The notes beneath the pieces were generated by a model, which was given only the letters and a program-made list of their open reading frames with translations, was not told the DNA's origin and made no database searches. From the NCBI GenBank assembly GCA_035454685.1, contig DATIGN010000127.1:56269-120268 (forward strand): a DNA stretch of 64,000 nucleotides, read 5' to 3'. Below are positions 9,162 through 47,118 of the stretch, piece after piece (position 1 is the stretch's first letter; each line of letters begins with the position of its first letter). The DNA is from Burkholderiales bacterium (GTDB taxonomy: Bacteria; Pseudomonadota; Gammaproteobacteria; Burkholderiales; SG8-39). The translations under genes and the position numbers were made by a program.

Positions 9162-10402
9162 GCGAAGGGAAACGCTACCTGGGGCTCGCGGCCGGAGACG
9201 AGATCGGCGAGCGCACTTCCCGAGCCGCAGGCGAGGGTCCAGCCGAGCGTGCCGTGGCCTGTATTCAGAAACAGGTTCTTCAGGCGAGTTCGCCCAATCA
9301 CGGGCACGTTGTTCGGCGTGGCCGGGCGCAGCCCGGTCCAGTTCTCCACCGTGGTCACGGCACCGAGCGCCGGAAAGAGGCTGCGCACGCGGCGCGCGAT
9401 TGCCGCGCAGCGGCCAGGATCTACCGAAGTGTCGTAGCCCGCGAGCTCCGCGGTGCCGGCGGCGCGCAGCCGGCTGCCGAGCCTCGAGATCACGATCTTG
9501 TACGCCTCGTCGGTAAGGCTGACGGTGGGCGCGGCGCCAAACTCGGCCGGACCGAGCGGCAGGGTGATGGAATAGCCCTTCATCGGATACACCGGGATGC
9601 GGATGGCGAGCGGCTTGAGCAGGAGCGGGCTATAGCTTCCGAGAGAAACAACGTAGGCGTCCGCTGTTTCCACCGACTGCGTGTGCAGGCGGATTCCACC
9701 GACCCGATCACCCTCGGCCTCGATTGCGTCCACTGCGCAACCAAAGCGAAATGAGACCCCACGCGAAGCGGCGATGCGCGCAAGCTCCTGGGTAAAGCGG
9801 TACGCGTCGCCGGACTCGTCATCCGGGTCGTAGACGCCGCCGAGCACCGGCTCGTTCGAGTGCCGGAGGGCCGGCTCGAGCGCGAGGCACTCGGCGCCCG
9901 ATTTGATTTCGGGAGCCGCGCCAAGTGCGCGCAGCGCCTCGGCGTGGCGCGCCATCGCGTCGAAGTCGCTCTGGCGCGTGGCGAACTGCAGGATTCCACG
10001 CTCGAGCTCGTCGTAGCGCAGGCCGAGCTCACGGCGCAGCGCACGCAGGCACTCGCGGCTGTAGCGCGCCAGCGCGCCGAGCGTGCGCACGTGGCGCTCG
10101 AAGCGCCCGGGAAGGCATTCGTACAGGAAACGCAGGCCCCATTCCCATTGCGACCAGCTCGCGCGCGGACGGAAAAGCAGCGGCGCGTCCTCGCGCCCCA
10201 GCCAGCGCAGGATCTGCGGCACCGCGGCCGGCTTCGCCCACGGCTGGGCGTGCCCGGCGGCGATCTGCCCGCCGTTCGCGAACGAGGTCTCCAGCCCTGG
10301 CGCCTCACGCCGCTCGATCAACGTGACTTCGTGACCGGCCGCGGCGAGATACCAGGCGCCGGCGACGCCGACCACGCCGCCCCCGAGAACAATGACTTTC
10401 AC
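9158..10402 (-). CDS. dadA: D-amino acid dehydrogenase-like FAD oxidoreductase
   Basis: GGGVVGVAGAWYLAAAGHEVTLIE dinucleotide fold. DadA-like blocks IPVYPMKGYSITLPL and TGLRPATPNNVPVIGRT...NTGHGTLGWTLACGSG. Confidence 0.82.
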   Translation of the reverse strand: MKVIVLGGGVVGVAGAWYLAAAGHEVTLIERREAPGLETSFANGGQIAAGHAQPWAKPAAVPQILRWLGREDAPLLFRPRASWSQWEWGLRFLYECLPGRFERHVRTLGALARYSRECLRALRRELGLRYDELERGILQFATRQSDFDAMARHAEALRALGAAPEIKSGAECLALEPALRHSNEPVLGGVYDPDDESGDAYRFTQELARIAASRGVSFRFGCAVDAIEAEGDRVGGIRLHTQSVETADAYVVSLGSYSPLLLKPLAIRIPVYPMKGYSITLPLGPAEFGAAPTVSLTDEAYKIVISRLGSRLRAAGTAELAGYDTSVDPGRCAAIARRVRSLFPALGAVTTVENWTGLRPATPNNVPVIGRTRLKNLFLNTGHGTLGWTLACGSGSALADLVSGREPQVAFPFA

Positions 10403-34038: not shown

Positions 34039-35055
34039 TCCCTGCACGCGCACACCGAGGAGCCGCACCGCCTTCATTCCCGCCTGAGTGCGCGCGGCGA
34101 GCTCCACCGCCCACGAGGCAATGAGGTCCGCATCCGCTGTCGGGCGCGACAGCGTATGACTGCGCGTCACGGTCTTGAAATCGGAATAGCGCACCTTGAT
34201 CGTCACGGTGCGCGCTGCGAGCCGCCGCCGCGCGAGCCAGTCGGCGTTCTCGCGCGCCATGCGATCGAGCTCGGCGCGGATGGCATCCGCATCGACCAGA
34301 TCGTGCGCATACGTATTCTCCGTGCTGGAAGACTTCGACTCGCGGTCCGGCACCACCGGCCGCGGATCGTCGCCTTGCGAGAGCTGGCGCAGCCAGTCGG
34401 CGAGACTGCCCACGGTGTCGCGCAGGAGCTGCGCATCCGCGGTGCGGATCTGCACCAGCCGTTCTATCCCGAGTCCGCGCAGCTTGCGGGCAGTCACCGG
34501 CCCCACTCCCCACAGCGCTTCCACCGGCAGCTCCTGCAGGAAGCTCTCCACGCGCTCAGGCGAGATCACGGTAAGCCCGTCGGGCTTGCGGTAGCCGGAG
34601 GCGATCTTGGCCAGGAACTTGTTCGGCGCGACGCCCGCCGAAGCGGTGAGCCCCGTCTGCTCGACGATTTGCTGCTTCAGCCGTCGGGCGACGCGGCTAC
34701 CGAACTCCTCGCCCCAGGCGTTCTCGGTGACGTCCAGATAAGCCTCGTCGAGCGAAAGCGGCTCCACCAGCGGCGTGCAAGCTCGCAGAATGGCCATCAC
34801 CTGGCTCGACACGCGCCGGTAGCGCTCGAAGTCCGGAGACACGATCATGAGCTCGGGGCAGAGTCTCAGCGCGCGCGCCATCGGCATCGCCGAGCGCACG
34901 CCGAACGCGCGCGCCTCGTAGCTCGCGGCCGCCACCACGCCGCGCGCCTGCGGCCGGCCCCCGACCGCCACCGGCTTGCCGCGCAGTTCCGGTTGGTCGC
35001 GTTGCTCGACCGAGGCGTAGAACGCGTCCATGTCCAGATGGACAACCCGCCGCAT
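34015..35055 (-). CDS. dinB: DNA polymerase IV
   Basis: Start at the internal ATG ([20 protein letters not shown]). [10 protein letters not shown] and Y-family palm/little-finger blocks. Confidence 0.92.
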
Positions 35056-38006: not shown

Positions 38007-39248
38007 CTATTGCGCGGCGGGCTGCTGCTCGAACTTGCGCGCGAGAAAGCCGATGACCTCGTCTGCGTTACGGAACCGGGCATCGCGGTCCTTCTCCACC
38101 AGCTTGTCCAGCAAAGGCTGGTACTGCGCGAGCTCCGGCGGCAACGACGGCGGGATGGTGTTCAAATGGTGCATGGCGATCTCCATGGCGGTCTCGCCAT
38201 CGAACATGTGCCTGCCGGTGAGCATCTGGTAGAGCAGCACGCCCGCGCTGTAGATGTCTGTGCGCAGGTCGAGCGCACGCCCTTGCACCTGCTCCGGGCT
38301 CATGTAGCGCGGCGTGCCTAGCACTTCGCCGGCCCCGGTGCGGTCCGCTGCCGCGATGTTCTTCGCGATGCCAAAGTCCACGATCGAGAGCGTGCCGTCG
38401 CGGCGGAACATCAGATTCTGGGGCTTGAGGTCGCGGTGCAGGATGCCCTTCTCGTGAATGTCGCCGAGCGCGAACATGAGCTCGCGGAAGAGTCTCAGCG
38501 CCTCCTGCGGCGGCACCGGCCGGTTGCCCAGGCGCTTGCTCAGGTCGCCGCCCTCGAAAAACTCCATCACCAGATAGACGTTGTTCTCGTACCTACCGTG
38601 CCCGAGGATGCGGGCGACGTGGCGGCTCTGGATCCGCTCGACCATGGCGAACTCTTCCATGAACCGCTCCATCGCTTTGCGGTTGACCACGGCGTCCTGG
38701 CGCAGGATTTTGACCACGAGCGGCTCGTCGTCGTCCTCGCGCGAGGCGAGGTAAACCCGGGCCGTGCCGCCTTCGCCGATCAGGTGCAGGATCCTGATGC
38801 CAGGGATGCGCACCTTGACGCGCAGGTTCTGGCCTTCCATGCGCGACGCCAGGTCGGGCGACACGGTGCGCTCCACCGGAGTCGCGGTGAGCTCCCGGAT
38901 CGAGGCAATCAGCTTTTCGCGGGTGAGCTCCTGCTTGCGCTGATAGTCGTCCGCGCCGGCCTTGATCGCGCGCACGGCGATGATCTCGTTGCCGGCGCCG
39001 GTCAGAAACAGGACCTTCGGGCAGTCGTCGCGCCGCTTGAGCGCTTTCAGCCACTCCAGGCCGTCGCCGCGGCCGAGCATGTAGTCGAGCACGATGACGT
39101 CGTAGGAGCGCAGCGGAAAAGCGGCGCTCGGCAGGTCGTGCTCAAGCGGATCGTAGCCATCGATCTGGGCGTCTGGCCACTGGCTGCGGACGTAGCGCGA
39201 TACGAGGTTGCGCAGATCTTCGTCGTCATCGATCAGCAGGATGCGCAT
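38007..39248 (-). CDS. Receiver domain fused to a Hanks-type Ser/Thr protein kinase
   Basis: REC: MRILLIDDDEDL, VIVLDYML, GADDYQRK. Kinase: GEGGTARVY, VVKIL, HRDLKPQNLMF, DFGIAK, GTPRYMSPEQ. Confidence 0.9.
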   Translation of the reverse strand: MRILLIDDDEDLRNLVSRYVRSQWPDAQIDGYDPLEHDLPSAAFPLRSYDVIVLDYMLGRGDGLEWLKALKRRDDCPKVLFLTGAGNEIIAVRAIKAGADDYQRKQELTREKLIASIRELTATPVERTVSPDLASRMEGQNLRVKVRIPGIRILHLIGEGGTARVYLASREDDDEPLVVKILRQDAVVNRKAMERFMEEFAMVERIQSRHVARILGHGRYENNVYLVMEFFEGGDLSKRLGNRPVPPQEALRLFRELMFALGDIHEKGILHRDLKPQNLMFRRDGTLSIVDFGIAKNIAAADRTGAGEVLGTPRYMSPEQVQGRALDLRTDIYSAGVLLYQMLTGRHMFDGETAMEIAMHHLNTIPPSLPPELAQYQPLLDKLVEKDRDARFRNADEVIGFLARKFEQQPAAQ

Positions 39249-43090: not shown

Positions 43091-44261
43091 GCAGGTACCA
43101 TTCGTAGGTCGAGCTGCCGCCAGCTTCCCGGTAGACCCAGGCGAGCGCGCCGTCGGACAGCCGGGCGACGAAGTAATCGCGCCTCGCGTCATCGCCGTCC
43201 CACCAGCCCGACTCGATGCGCTCAGGACCGGCGAGCGCAGTGAATTCGCTTTCTTTGAGCTTTTTCGGTTCAAGAAGCCAAACTGGGCGCGGGCCGGGAG
43301 CCGCATACGTTCGCGGATCCCATTCGCCGGGCTCGACGCGCCGCCAGGCGTGCTCCGGGCGATGATCCGGCAGCGCGGCGAAGCCGTGCACGGCGGCATT
43401 GCCCAGCCGGGCGCGCAACCGCTCGAGGAGCTCGGCCCAGTCTTCGACTGCGCGCGCCGCATCGCCGAACATCCCTGCGCTGGCCGCCTGGAGCGGGGCG
43501 AAGTCGCCGGCCTCGAGCCGCATCGCCGTTACCGGCTCGGCCAGCTGCACCTGGGCAAGACGCTCGCGCAGCACTCGCGCCATGCGCTCGGCATCCCGAG
43601 TCGCGGAAGCGAGCGTGATCTCGACGCTGCTCGCGCGGCTTTCGTGCAGCAGGACGAGCCGGAAGGCGCGAATGCCCTCGTGTCGCGCCGCAAGCAGGCC
43701 TGCGAGCTGCATGAGCAGCCGGCGGGCGCCGAAAAGCAGGCTTTCGGCGTGAGCCACTTCCGCGGGCAGCTCGAGCCTTGCATCGAAGCGCCGCGGCGGC
43801 GCGAAAAAGCTGCGCGGTTCGGGAGCCGCCCCAAGCGCCCGGTCGAGGTCTTTAACCACCGCCGCGCCGCAGCGCAGCGCAAGCCCTTCGCGCGGCAGCT
43901 CGAGCAGCGCTCCGACGGTAGAGATCCCGACTGCGCGGAGCAATTCGACGTCGAAGCCGGTCACCTCGACCGGGAGCGACTCCAGCTGGGTTTCGCCTTC
44001 GCCGCGCGCGAGCCACAGCGCGGCGCGCGCGGTGGACGCGGCCGCGAGGTAAAACGGGTAGCCGAGCTCGCCCAGCCCGGCCGCCAACTTCTGCGTGAGC
44101 GGCCTGAATCCTCCGAGCAATCGCAGGCTGCCGTGCACTTCCAGCAGCAACTCCTGCGGCGGCTCGAGCGAGACTCTAGGCGTGAACTGGCACGTCCAGG
44201 CGGCAATCGGCGCGAGCGCCTGCGGCGGCAGGCACGGGAAGTGGAGTGCGACCCAAAACAT
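43074..44261 (-). CDS. imuB: ImuB, Y-family-polymerase-like mutasome subunit
   Basis: [17 protein letters not shown]-terminus is typical of ImuB. Position between imuA and dnaE2. Confidence 0.85.
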
Positions 44262-44883
44262 GGAAAGGCCTGTTCACGGAAACGAGGAGCGGCGCCACCG
44301 CAGGCGCTCCCCTGCGCTTGAGGATGCGCAGCGCGAGCGCGCCGCCCTCAGGCTCGATAGCGATGCGCAGGGCGGCGGGCGAGGTCTCGCGCGCAGCTTC
44401 GGGCGGGCGAAAAAGCGTCACCCAGGCCGGGCCACCTTGCGCGGCGAGCGCGAGGCGCCGCAGCTCTCGGTAGCCCGGGCGGCGCAACCAGGCGAGCAAG
44501 GCATGGCAGCTTCTCGAGCGCAGCACTTGTTCTGCGGCCCACAGCGCATCGCGCCGGCCGGGCGTACGCATCACCACGAGGTTGGCGAGATCCACGCCCA
44601 CGGCGGCGAGCGCCGGCGCGTAGGGAAGATGCGGCGGCGCGAGCCATACCACGCGCTTGCCGGCCCAGGAAAGCGCCGCCAGGGTCGGCAGCACGATGCC
44701 GAGCTCGCCTATGCCTTCATGCCCGCAAAGGATCTCGGTGAGCGCGCCGGTCGGCCAGCCGTCTCCGGGCAAGGCGCGGTCCAGGTCTGGATATGTCGTT
44801 GAAAGGGTGGGGGAAAAATAACCGGCGACCCGACCGCGCCAGACCGGGTGCCGCTCGAGAATATGTTTCAGGGCAGCGTTCAT
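44176..44883 (-). CDS. imuA: ImuA, RecA/SulA-like mutasome subunit
   Basis: GWPTGALTEILCGHEGIGELGIVLP is typical of ImuA. Start is ambiguous (ATG 44883 or 44895). The 3' end overlaps imuB by 86 nt. Confidence 0.8.
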   Translation of the reverse strand: MNAALKHILERHPVWRGRVAGYFSPTLSTTYPDLDRALPGDGWPTGALTEILCGHEGIGELGIVLPTLAALSWAGKRVVWLAPPHLPYAPALAAVGVDLANLVVMRTPGRRDALWAAEQVLRSRSCHALLAWLRRPGYRELRRLALAAQGGPAWVTLFRPPEAARETSPAALRIAIEPEGGALALRILKRRGAPAVAPLLVSVNRPFHVLGRTPLPVPAAAGARADCRLDVPVHA

Positions 44884-44885
44884 GA

Positions 44886-44905
44886 TACTGTACATAAATA
44901 CAGTA
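44886..44905. promoter_or_regulatory. LexA (SOS) box, perfect CTGT-N8-ACAG palindrome
   Basis: TACTGTACATAAATACAGTA lies immediately upstream of, or overlapping, the imuA start. Confidence 0.85.
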
Positions 44906-44970
44906 TCGGATCAGCGTCCCCCTTTCAAGCGCCGCGGGGGTCGTCTGGCGATGTGCCGGGCCCTCGCCTG

Positions 44971-45858
44971 CTACTCGCAGAAGAACTCGACCACATCGGT
45001 CGCGCCGGCGCGCGACTGGCCGAACGCGATCCAACCGTGACCGCGCAGCGTGAACTCCTCGCGGCGCAGGGTGATTTCCTTGTCGCCCTCGATAGTGACG
45101 AACGTCCCGTTTGCGCTGTGATCGGTGAGCACGAACCTGTCGAGGCGCCGCTCGATCTTGCCGTGCGCGCGCGACGCCATGCGCTCCGTGATCACGAGGT
45201 CGGCCGACTGGTCCCGGCCCATGGCGAGCGACGGGCGCTGCGCCGAGAGCACAACCTCGGTCTCGTGCATCTTCAGCCGCAATGTGGTGTTGCGCGGCCT
45301 GAAAACGGCCTTGTGCGAGGCGAGTGTGGTCATGTCCTGGCTGTGCTGCCACATCAGCTCGTAGACCTGGATCTCGTGCGCCTTGCCTTTCGCCTGAATG
45401 GTGGTGATGGTGCGCGTGCTGGCCTTGAGCCTCGGCGACATCATCAACACGGTGTCGCGTGCAGTGATGATCTGACCCTTGCTCGCGACGGCGGCGAGGC
45501 GCGAAGCCACGTTCACCGCGTCGCCGAACACGTCGCCGTCGCGCTCGACCACCTGGCCGTAGTTGAAGCCGATGCGGATCCCGAGCGTAGTGCTGCCGAT
45601 GGGGGGCAGCTCGGAAATCGCGAGCTGCATCTCCATCGCGGCGCTGGCCGCGTCGTCCGCGCTGCGAAAGGCGGACATCACTTCGTCGCCGATCGTCTTG
45701 ATCACGCGGCCCTTCGCGGCCTGCGTCTTCTGGCGCATGATGTTGACGCAGCTTTCCACCGCCGCGTGCGCGACCGCGTTGCCCGCGGTCTCGTAGAGCT
45801 TGGTGCTGCCGCTGACGTCGGCGAAAAGAATCGCTGCCTCGCTAGCCTGTTCCGCCAT
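44971..45858 (-). CDS. Class III adenylate/guanylate cyclase domain fused to a C-terminal FHA domain
   Basis: Cyclase: ILFADVSGSTKLY, IKTIGDEVMSAF, FGDAVNVASRL. FHA: GRDQSADLVI...SRAHGKI...LTDHSANGTFV. Confidence 0.85.
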   Translation of the reverse strand: MAEQASEAAILFADVSGSTKLYETAGNAVAHAAVESCVNIMRQKTQAAKGRVIKTIGDEVMSAFRSADDAASAAMEMQLAISELPPIGSTTLGIRIGFNYGQVVERDGDVFGDAVNVASRLAAVASKGQIITARDTVLMMSPRLKASTRTITTIQAKGKAHEIQVYELMWQHSQDMTTLASHKAVFRPRNTTLRLKMHETEVVLSAQRPSLAMGRDQSADLVITERMASRAHGKIERRLDRFVLTDHSANGTFVTIEGDKEITLRREEFTLRGHGWIAFGQSRAGATDVVEFFCE

Positions 45859-45909
45859 CCAGAACGTCTGCCCCCGGTGGTCGGATTGTACTCTGCGCGC
45901 CAGCGTGCC

Positions 45910-47118
45910 TTAATTACGTGTGCGCACGCCGATCACGAAAAGGTTGGCGACCACGATCGTCGCCGCGAGGAAGTAGAACGCGGCGGCAAGGCCGAACCTA
46001 TCCGCCACCATTCCGCCGAGCAGCGGGCCGAGCGCGCCGCCGACCGCCTGCGCTCCGAACAGCACGCCGATGCTGGAGCCGCCCATGTCCTTGGGCGTCG
46101 CTTCAAGCATCCACGCCTGGATCACGGGCCGCGTCGCGTAGAGGAAGAACCCGAGCACGGCGACCAGCGCGACAAAGAGCGGCGAGCCGCCGCTGAGCGC
46201 CATCGCCGCGAGCACGAGCGCGCTCGCCGCCATGCTGGTCATGAGGATGTGCTTGCGCCCCATGCGATCGGAGAGGTGGCCCGCCACCGGCGAGGCAGCG
46301 AAGCCGGCAGCCTGCAGCGCAAAAAGGCACGCCCCGACCCAGAACGGCGAATATCCCATGTCATTGGCGAGGTAGACCGGCAGGAAGGTGAGCAGCGCGC
46401 TCTGCGTCATGGTACGGAACGCCGAGCCGGTTGAGAGCAGCACGAGCGAGCGGCTGAGGAAAAGATTCTTGAGCCCGGCGAGATACGCGCCGAAAGACTG
46501 CGTCTTCTCTTCGGTCTTTTTCGAGCTAAGACGCATGCTGCCGAGAAATACGAACAGAAGCGCGGCCACGACGAGCCCGGGGACCACGTTGAGCATCACG
46601 ACTTCGCGCCAGGTGAAAACGGTCAACGCCGCGCCGATTACTACCGGCGCGACGGCGTCGCCGACGTTACCGCCCATGCCGTGGACCGAGAGCACAAGGC
46701 CCTTGCGCTCCGGATAGCGCCGGCCGAGCGTCGGGATCGCGGTGGGGTGCCAGAGGCTGTTGCCGAACCCGACCAGCGCGATGCACGCGAGCAGCATGAC
46801 GTAGCTGTGAGTAAAACCGATGAGGAGGTAGGGAAAGCCGATCCAGAAGAGCGACAGGCCCATCAGCAGCCCTTTGCGGCCCACAGTGTCCACCAGCACC
46901 CCGCCCGGAACATTCGCGACCGCCGAGGCGATGTACTTGCACGTCATAATGAGGCCGATCTGGCTGTAGGACAGACCGAGCTCCGCGCCGATGAGCGGCA
47001 GCAGGAGATAGAACGTGGCTGGGTACCAGTGCGTGAGGCCGTGGCCGACGGTGATCAGCCAAAGCTCGCGCCACGGCCGCGGCGGCGCGGGGTGCTGCGG
47101 CAGTACGGCCGCGCTCAA
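45910..47118 (-). CDS. MFS transporter
   Basis: 402 aa, 12 predicted TM segments. D-R/K-x-G-R-K-like loop (VDTVGRKG). Confidence 0.85.
   Translation of the reverse strand: MSAAVLPQHPAPPRPWRELWLITVGHGLTHWYPATFYLLLPLIGAELGLSYSQIGLIMTCKYIASAVANVPGGVLVDTVGRKGLLMGLSLFWIGFPYLLIGFTHSYVMLLACIALVGFGNSLWHPTAIPTLGRRYPERKGLVLSVHGMGGNVGDAVAPVVIGAALTVFTWREVVMLNVVPGLVVAALLFVFLGSMRLSSKKTEEKTQSFGAYLAGLKNLFLSRSLVLLSTGSAFRTMTQSALLTFLPVYLANDMGYSPFWVGACLFALQAAGFAASPVAGHLSDRMGRKHILMTSMAASALVLAAMALSGGSPLFVALVAVLGFFLYATRPVIQAWMLEATPKDMGGSSIGVLFGAQAVGGALGPLLGGMVADRFGLAAAFYFLAATIVVANLFVIGVRTRN

Follow-up and report, generated by a model that had tools for sequence, protein, structure and literature searches.

Why does a gene for a nucleotide cyclase fused to an FHA domain stand immediately before the SOS box of imuA, and to which kinase, if any, does its product respond? 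The window analyzed here is a stretch of 64,000 nucleotides from a Burkholderiales bacterium, whose assembly comprises 4.05 Mb in 211 contigs and is 93% complete. A preliminary description of the window had proposed that the fusion protein is a client of the only Hanks kinase in the window, encoded at the other end of the same gene string, and that it turns a DNA-damage or relay signal into a cyclic nucleotide signal. The reading favored here, to which we assign a probability of roughly 0.6, is that the protein is a class III adenylate cyclase, soluble and dependent on a Hanks kinase through its FHA domain, and that its adjacency to the SOS box is the product of a deletion.

Sequence and Predicted Structure of the Cyclase-FHA Protein

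The cyclase-FHA gene occupies positions 44971..45858 of the minus strand and runs from an ATG start to a TAG stop at 44973-44971, encoding 295 amino acids, as judged from the list of open reading frames, the translation, Pfam matches, and an AF2 model. The preliminary description gave the existence, length, domains, and motifs of this frame correctly and left its strand unstated. The plus-strand reading of 44971-45858 is open yet meaningless and was rejected. Pfam matched residues 2-166 to Guanylate_cyc (PF00211; E = 2.2e-19, 70.2 bits versus a cut-off of 21.9) and residues 213-255 to FHA (PF00498; E = 2.2e-8, 34.8 bits versus a cut-off of 20.7). The class III cyclase homology domain was delimited as residues 1-170 (45349..45858, minus strand) using Pfam, PDB alignments, Foldseek, and residue conservation. 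It is followed on the same strand by an inter-domain linker, residues 171-192 (45283..45348), delimited by pLDDT and by motif and column counts, and by the FHA domain, residues 193-295 (44974..45282), delimited by Pfam, invariant columns, and the β-sandwich in the AF2 model.

All of the cyclase motifs quoted in the preliminary description were found (F12-A-D14-V-S-G-S-T, I56-G-D58-E-V-M, and V115-N116-V-A-S-R120-L), as were the FHA motifs (G214-R215, S229-R-A-H232, and N250-G-T252). Residue conservation was scored on two family alignments, A1 with 12 members and A2 with 64 members. The metal-binding residues Asp-14 and Asp-58 are invariant in A2 and align with Asp residues of 3mr7 and Ma1120. 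Over the two alignments, the ATP-specifying pair consists of an invariant Lys-54 and an Asp-109 that is at least 90% conserved, and the transition-state pair of an Asn-116 that is at least 90% conserved and an invariant Arg-120. The catalytic roles of these three pairs are ones we assume from established knowledge of the class III cyclase family. Loss of catalytic residues on alignment had been named beforehand as grounds for abandoning the proposed cyclase; every catalytic residue is present. Because the protein contains the Lys-54/Asp-109 pair, ATP is predicted to be its substrate, and it appears to be equipped as a homodimeric adenylate cyclase. In the phosphothreonine pocket of the FHA domain, residues Gly-214, Arg-215, Ser-229, Arg-230, Asn-250, and Gly-251 are invariant, and His-232 is at least 90% conserved in A1 and A2. 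The FHA domain thus seems equipped to bind phosphothreonine.

The AF2 model, which was built from 64 family sequences, has a mean pLDDT of 91.6 and consists of two well-folded domains, with values above 90 in the cyclase domain; no membrane segment is found in the model. A Foldseek comparison of the modeled cyclase domain with Ma1120 gave TM scores of 0.86-0.91 and an E value of 9e-14. Residues 174-187 of the linker are predicted to be disordered (pLDDT below 50). The linker nevertheless contains a Thr position (Thr-176/Thr-177) within the motif W170-x(3-5)-[DEAQ]-x-T, which is found in 62 of 63 family members. We regard Thr-176/Thr-177 as a candidate phospho-acceptor, although the conserved Thr could be structural instead.

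The Gap to imuA and the Transcription of the Cyclase Gene

The neighboring imuA gene (44176..44895, minus strand, start probably at 44883) lies outside the cyclase unit and is the first gene of imuA-imuB-dnaE2. Its identity is given by the NCBIfam model NF033429 (ImuA_translesion), with 203 bits versus a cut-off of 150. The reported gap of 75 nt is exact when counted from the cyclase stop to the first ATG of imuA (44895), with both genes on the minus strand. This first ATG lies inside a perfect LexA box and is not conserved, being replaced by TTG in the congener G009 and by ACG in the congener G012 in the alignment to window positions 44881-44895. In most relatives an ATG is found 0-5 nt past the LexA box before imuA. 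The start of imuA in the window is therefore likely to be the second ATG, at 44883, 3 nt past the box, which would make the gap 87 nt.

The LexA (SOS) box, TACTGTATTTATGTACAGTA, was located at 44905-44886 on the minus strand from the sequence and by a pattern search. It is conserved before imuA in 8/8 relatives and, on that comparison, belongs to imuA and not to the cyclase gene. The only CTGT-N8-ACAG core near the cyclase gene is the one at 44888-44903, downstream of the cyclase stop. No LexA box was found upstream of the cyclase gene (45859-45909), and by this criterion the gene is not a member of the SOS regulon. Elsewhere in the window, further exact matches to CTGT-N8-ACAG are found at 9259-9274 and 34137-34152 (CTGTATTCAGAAACAG and CTGTCGGGCGCGACAG, respectively), making three in all versus 0.35 expected by chance.

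A -10-like hexamer, TACAAT, was found at 45885..45890 on the minus strand, 26 nt before the cyclase ATG, by comparing the upstream sequences of 10 orthologues. It is kept in all 10 orthologous loci, approximately 26-30 nt before the ATG, regardless of which gene lies upstream, and in most relatives it is preceded by a strong intrinsic terminator of that upstream gene. A consensus scan did not call a full σ70 promoter for the cyclase gene. Nevertheless, since TACAAT is conserved in all ten loci and preceded by the terminator of the upstream gene, the cyclase gene probably has its own promoter at this position. Between the cyclase gene and imuA, no σ70 consensus promoter and no convincing terminator were called. 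Transcription of the cyclase gene may run on into imuA, and the same may have held for fha in the ancestral layout. The damage-signal link proposed for the cyclase finds no support in these observations: the nearby LexA box follows the gene instead of preceding it, none other lies close by, and the gene has its own TACAAT element. The position beside the SOS box probably has no regulatory meaning for the cyclase.

Gene Neighborhood in Congeners

Among 25 genomes of the genus, the genome under study (G000) included, 10 carry a cyclase orthologue with at least 74% identity, which makes 9 of 24 congeners. One of these is the 99%-identical sister genome G013. The other eight loci, L021-L028, are from G009, G012, G015, G021, G016, G014, G023, and G006; they come from related genomes and hence are not independent samples. 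In 8/8 of these loci a gene for a PpkA-like kinase lies directly downstream of the cyclase gene. The genes are arranged on one strand in the order two-partner secretion pair or MFS gene, cyclase-FHA, and PpkA-like kinase, the last being a protein of ~650-915 amino acids with Pkinase and Sel1 matches in Pfam. The kinase gene is followed, optionally, by genes for TssL (DotU plus OmpA), TssM' (IcmF-related_N), and TagF (TagF_N), and then by Fha (FHA plus T6SS_FHA_C), which is missing only in G016 among the eight. Next come the LexA box, imuA-imuB-dnaE2, and genes for a TPR protein, an Hpt protein, and the REC-kinase. The TssM of the congeners is truncated to an N-terminal part of ~600 amino acids. 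No PP2C was seen in the block. In this clade, the ancestral neighbor of the cyclase is a PpkA-like membrane kinase within a T6SS-derived TssL/TssM'/TagF/Fha module.

This module is shrinking. G012 and G015 lack TssL, TssM, and TagF, and G016 also lacks Fha; the cyclase is always kept. Its persistence during the stepwise decay of the module suggests that the cyclase is not strictly dependent on that kinase. No T6SS sheath gene (VipB/TssC) was found in 5/5 module-bearing congener genomes searched, and no Hcp in 4 of these 5. The block resembles an orphaned threonine-phosphorylation module that lacks its secretion machine and is disappearing step by step in separate species. That congeners keep regulatory and membrane parts of a T6SS without the secretion machine is a clue to the reuse of such parts. 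In G009, tandem Hcp-domain matches occur in long open frames (G009:C171:19275-20456 and G009:C198:283-627), with no sheath gene detected there.

A promoter-like sequence, TTGTCAGGTCCTTGATATGACTCGATAATGTC (TTGTCA, 17 nt, GATAAT), precedes the ppkA-like gene in 5/5 congeners inspected (L021-L025). With this element before the kinase gene, co-transcription with the cyclase gene is not required, and the pair is a conserved neighborhood rather than a proven operon. Upstream of the cyclase gene, most congeners carry a two-partner secretion pair, composed of a ShlB-type transporter and a TPS-domain exoprotein of ~1400 amino acids, between the MFS and cyclase genes (L022:11640-17863, with equivalents in L023, L024, and L026). 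The pair is absent from the corresponding part of the window (45910-47118) and from G016. By this comparison, the MFS-cyclase interval is an indel hotspot.

A Deletion between the Cyclase Gene and imuA

The preliminary description had made its proposal conditional on linkage of the cyclase gene to imuA in relatives. Direct adjacency is found only in G013 besides G000; a looser linkage, with the genes 1-5 genes apart, does hold within the clade. The reason for the difference is visible in the gap itself. Positions 44911..44935 (minus strand) are a 25-nt remnant of the 3' end of fha, encoding RRLKGGR followed by TGA, as identified by alignment to G009 and G012; the intact fha gene of relatives encodes T6SS_FHA_C and FHA domains in Pfam. 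Over a 55-nt alignment, the fha 3' end and the SOS-box region are nearly identical to those of G009 and G012. The 35 nt next to the cyclase stop (44936..44970, minus strand) form a spacer that flanks the deletion junction on its left. For these 35 nt, local alignment detected no counterpart in any of 8 relatives, and the window aligns with the relatives only from 44935 onward.

The deletion extends from ppkA through most of fha, with a size of ~3.8 kb if the ancestral layout was that of G012 and ~7.7 kb if it was that of G009. It has left the cyclase gene 35 nt from the fha stump and 65 nt from the LexA box of imuA. On the strength of these alignments, the cyclase-imuA adjacency is a recent deletion scar: the cyclase gene and the LexA box are close together because the kinase and the T6SS-like block were deleted in this lineage. 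Orthologues of PpkA, TssL, TssM, TagF, and Fha were not found in the 93% complete assembly, where only the fha stump remains. Specifically, no orthologue of the PpkA-like kinase was found elsewhere in the genome, the best match having 46% identity and covering the kinase domain only. The T6SS threonine phosphorylation module, recognized by adjacent PpkA, Fha, and TagF, was found in 8 congeners and in neither the window nor the assembly.

The cyclase gene has a dN/dS of 0.069 between G000 and G013, both of which carry the deletion. This ratio indicates that the gene is under purifying selection since the deletion, and hence without its neighboring module. The locus serves as a caution: what looked like a striking juxtaposition of a signaling enzyme and an SOS operator is the mark left by a recent deletion.

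Candidate Kinase Partners of the Cyclase

The kinase that had been proposed as the partner of the cyclase is a REC-Ser/Thr kinase encoded at 38007..39248 on the minus strand, with Response_reg and Pkinase matches in Pfam. The statement that it is the only kinase is true even for the whole contig, which has a single Pkinase match. It is not true of the genome, which encodes 11 Hanks kinases, so that the argument from uniqueness is an effect of the window. Orthologues of the REC-kinase are present in ~21/24 congeners, at least 11 of which have no cyclase orthologue, and are never adjacent to the cyclase gene. A kinase that is near-universal in the genus, cyclase-less genomes included, shows no specific tie to the cyclase.

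The PpkA-like kinase has a different distribution. Its orthologue is present in all 8 carriers of the cyclase orthologue other than G000 and G013, and both genes are missing in at least 8 congeners. Two genomes, G017 and G002, show the kinase only; their assemblies are incomplete and hence uninformative for co-occurrence. The conserved neighbor of the cyclase is thus the PpkA-like kinase, a protein of roughly 840 amino acids now deleted from the genome under study, and not the REC-kinase.

An association with kinases is also seen beyond the genus. We inspected 80 species-representative loci of the family from Betaproteobacteria (Burkholderiales, Usitatibacter, Gallionella, Rhodoferax, Cupriavidus, Paraburkholderia, and Aromatoleum). 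A Hanks kinase domain is encoded within 5 kb of the cyclase gene in 45 of the 80, in four arrangements. Kinase density at these loci is 0.068 per kb near the cyclase versus 0.0078 per kb further out; the genome-wide density in the genome under study is 11 per 4047 kb, or ~0.003 per kb. The cyclase-adjacent kinases share a common N-terminal signature and are membrane-anchored. Ten of them were inspected for cNMP-binding domains and none was seen, the proteins having periplasmic or coiled-coil tails. With kinase genes so frequent close to the cyclase gene, control of cyclase-FHA proteins by Hanks kinases is likely on comparative grounds. The idea of a kinase client is thus well supported in its general form, with kinases beside the cyclase in 8/8 congeners and within 5 kb in 45/80 loci, but lacks specific support for the REC-kinase. 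Approximately 35 of the 80 family loci, and both paralogues in the genome under study, have no kinase nearby. With so many members of this kind, partners encoded in trans appear to be normal for the cyclase-FHA family.

Related Proteins Encoded Elsewhere in the Genome

The genome encodes 20 class III cyclase domains and 17 cNMP-binding domains in addition to its 11 Hanks kinases. The window contains no cNMP-binding domain (PF00027), as had been noted; all 17 were found in a search of the rest of the genome. Candidate effectors for cAMP are therefore plentiful elsewhere. The assembly contains three FHA domains, each within a cyclase-FHA fusion. The two paralogues of the protein described here, C122:4657-5619(-) and C196:49847-50746(+), are standalone genes in unrelated contexts, and no kinase gene lies beside either. 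The C122 copy has lost both metal-binding Asp residues (FAELIG and IGGRLL in place of the canonical motifs) and has retained the Lys, Asp, Asn, and Arg residues. In its sequence this pattern resembles the regulatory half of a heterodimeric cyclase.

Three of the Hanks kinases have a C-terminal cNMP-binding domain: C50:1263-2537(+), C38:24962-26335(-), and C152:1165-2505(-). These domains have the motif FGEMAY or FGEILY, and their phosphate-binding cassettes contain Arg. It is conceivable that cAMP acts on these kinases and the kinases in turn on the three cyclase-FHA proteins, which would close a loop.

Proposed Mechanism and Alternatives

In the mechanism we favor, the cyclase-FHA protein would act as a homodimer with cAMP as its output. 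A Hanks kinase would phosphorylate Thr-176/Thr-177 of the linker, or else itself, and the FHA domain would capture the phosphothreonine in cis or across the dimer. Capture would alter the geometry of the cyclase dimer and so switch the output of cAMP. With the cognate module deleted, the input to the cyclase must now come from the kinases that remain; in this genome it would be one of the 11, the REC-kinase being merely one candidate among them. A broader proposal, which we offer tentatively and regard as less likely than not, is that cyclase-FHA proteins are the output of a pathway, so far undescribed, by which Hanks kinases of Betaproteobacteria control cAMP. On this proposal, linker phosphothreonine captured by the FHA domain of the second protomer would assemble the active dimer; in this clade the remnant of a T6SS membrane complex (TssL, truncated TssM, TagF, Fha, and PpkA) would act as an envelope sensor, put to new use by bacteria without a T6SS; and in the genome under study the three cNMP-binding kinases may close the loop. 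In the literature searched, no published test of a bacterial cyclase-FHA protein or of its link to a kinase was found. If kinase control is real, it would connect two large signaling currencies of bacteria, Ser/Thr phosphorylation and cAMP.

The original suggestion, in which the REC-kinase passes a phosphorelay or DNA-damage signal to the cyclase and the position at the SOS box is functional, has in its favor that this kinase is the sole one on the contig, that the imuABC, TPR, Hpt, and REC-kinase genes follow the cyclase gene in syntenic order in congeners, and that the REC-kinase is the nearest one left once the PpkA-like kinase was lost. We consider it unlikely. Orthologues of the REC-kinase occur in at least 11 congeners that have no cyclase orthologue, a different kinase directly adjoins the cyclase gene in relatives, and the genome encodes ten other kinases. 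Furthermore, the LexA box is downstream of the cyclase gene, which is itself preceded by a conserved -10 element but by no LexA box, and the adjacency is a deletion product confined to two near-identical genomes. The deletion mostly explains away the reading of a cyclase at an SOS box serving the REC-kinase. The same deletion raises the question of whether the enzyme has been orphaned, its FHA ligand gone with the kinase and its cAMP synthesis constitutive or permanently off while the gene decays. The assembly indeed lacks the cognate kinase together with its entire module, and the module has decayed stepwise in other congeners. A decaying gene is nevertheless difficult to reconcile with the low dN/dS between G000 and G013 and with an FHA pocket and catalytic residues that are all intact. 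The two paralogues and many family members are also without an adjacent kinase, and a missing kinase carries less weight in an assembly that is only 93% complete. We therefore rate an orphaned enzyme as rather improbable.

Dependence on a Hanks kinase through the FHA domain also has to be weighed against a purely spatial role, in which the FHA domain is a localization tag that docks an always-active cyclase on a phosphorylated membrane complex, the ligand in relatives being phospho-TssL or the kinase. Agrobacterium Fha binds phospho-TssL at the membrane complex (PMC3953482), genes for TssL, TssM', TagF, and Fha accompany the kinase gene in relatives, and the cyclase itself is without a membrane segment. 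However, the genome under study lacks TssL, TssM, and Fha, and the near-universal linker Thr suggests self-recognition; a docking function is, in our judgment, quite unlikely. Least credible of all is a Pycsar-type or other defense cyclase with a non-canonical cyclic nucleotide as its product. PADLOC gave weak PycC matches, the best with 35 bits and an E value of 1.9e-9, but this is far below the 70 bits of the general class III model, and the Lys-54/Asp-109 pair specifies a purine, ATP. The gene belongs to a conserved chromosomal family with stable synteny, and its neighbors are an MFS transporter gene and imuA. With a weak PycC match and no adjacent effector gene, a defense identity was rejected.

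Comparison with Known Systems

The best sequence matches in the PDB are the minimal mycobacterial class III adenylate cyclases Ma1120 (PDB 4wp8 and 5d0e), Rv1264, and Rv1900c, together with Silicibacter 3mr7, to which the cyclase-FHA protein has ~25-29% identity. As in the Ma1120 group, the metal-binding, ATP-specifying, and transition-state residue pairs are all present in the protein, and it shares the catalytic fold of Ma1120 at the TM scores given above. Unlike the cyclase-FHA protein, these enzymes have no FHA domain, their regulators being pH-sensing, hydrolase, or other N-terminal domains. A search for the family gave 4854 matches at E ≤ 0.001, and the best 120 of these are all 291-297 amino acids in length and 78-98% identical. 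Members are widespread among Betaproteobacteria of soil and fresh water, and cultured carriers include Cupriavidus alkaliphilus ASC-732, Cupriavidus sp. YR651, and Paraburkholderia phymatum. NCBIfam has no model dedicated to the family, and none of its models reaches its cut-off for it. A fusion of the same type is found in Synechocystis Cya1 (slr1991), a class III cyclase with an FHA domain in which the domain order is reversed, the FHA domain being N-terminal. Cya1 belongs to a different lineage and a different genetic context and is not known to have a kinase partner.

The threonine phosphorylation pathway of the T6SS comprises PpkA, Fha, TagF, and TssL (described for Agrobacterium in PMC3953482 and for TagF-Fha in PMC5995506). 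Similarly, the congener cyclase gene heads a block encoding a PpkA-like kinase, TssL, the N-terminal part of TssM, TagF, and Fha. Unlike that pathway, the congeners have no sheath gene (5/5) and a truncated TssM, and the window retains only the 25-nt stump of fha.

The closest parallel in regulation is DgcB of Bdellovibrio bacteriovorus, an FHA-GGDEF diguanylate cyclase that is activated by its own phosphorylated N-terminal tail (PMC6733907). DgcB has an N-terminal FHA domain, makes c-di-GMP, and carries its phosphorylation site in the N-terminal tail, whereas the cyclase-FHA protein has its cyclase domain first, is predicted to make cAMP, and has its candidate site in the linker. Phospho-dependent dimerization of an FHA domain has a precedent in MDC1 (PMC3351156). 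Both DgcB and the cyclase-FHA protein couple an FHA sensor to a nucleotide cyclase that must dimerize, the two cyclases belonging to one fold superfamily. The activating phospho-ligand of DgcB is supplied by a disordered segment of DgcB itself, which is the model we propose for the linker Thr of the cyclase-FHA protein.
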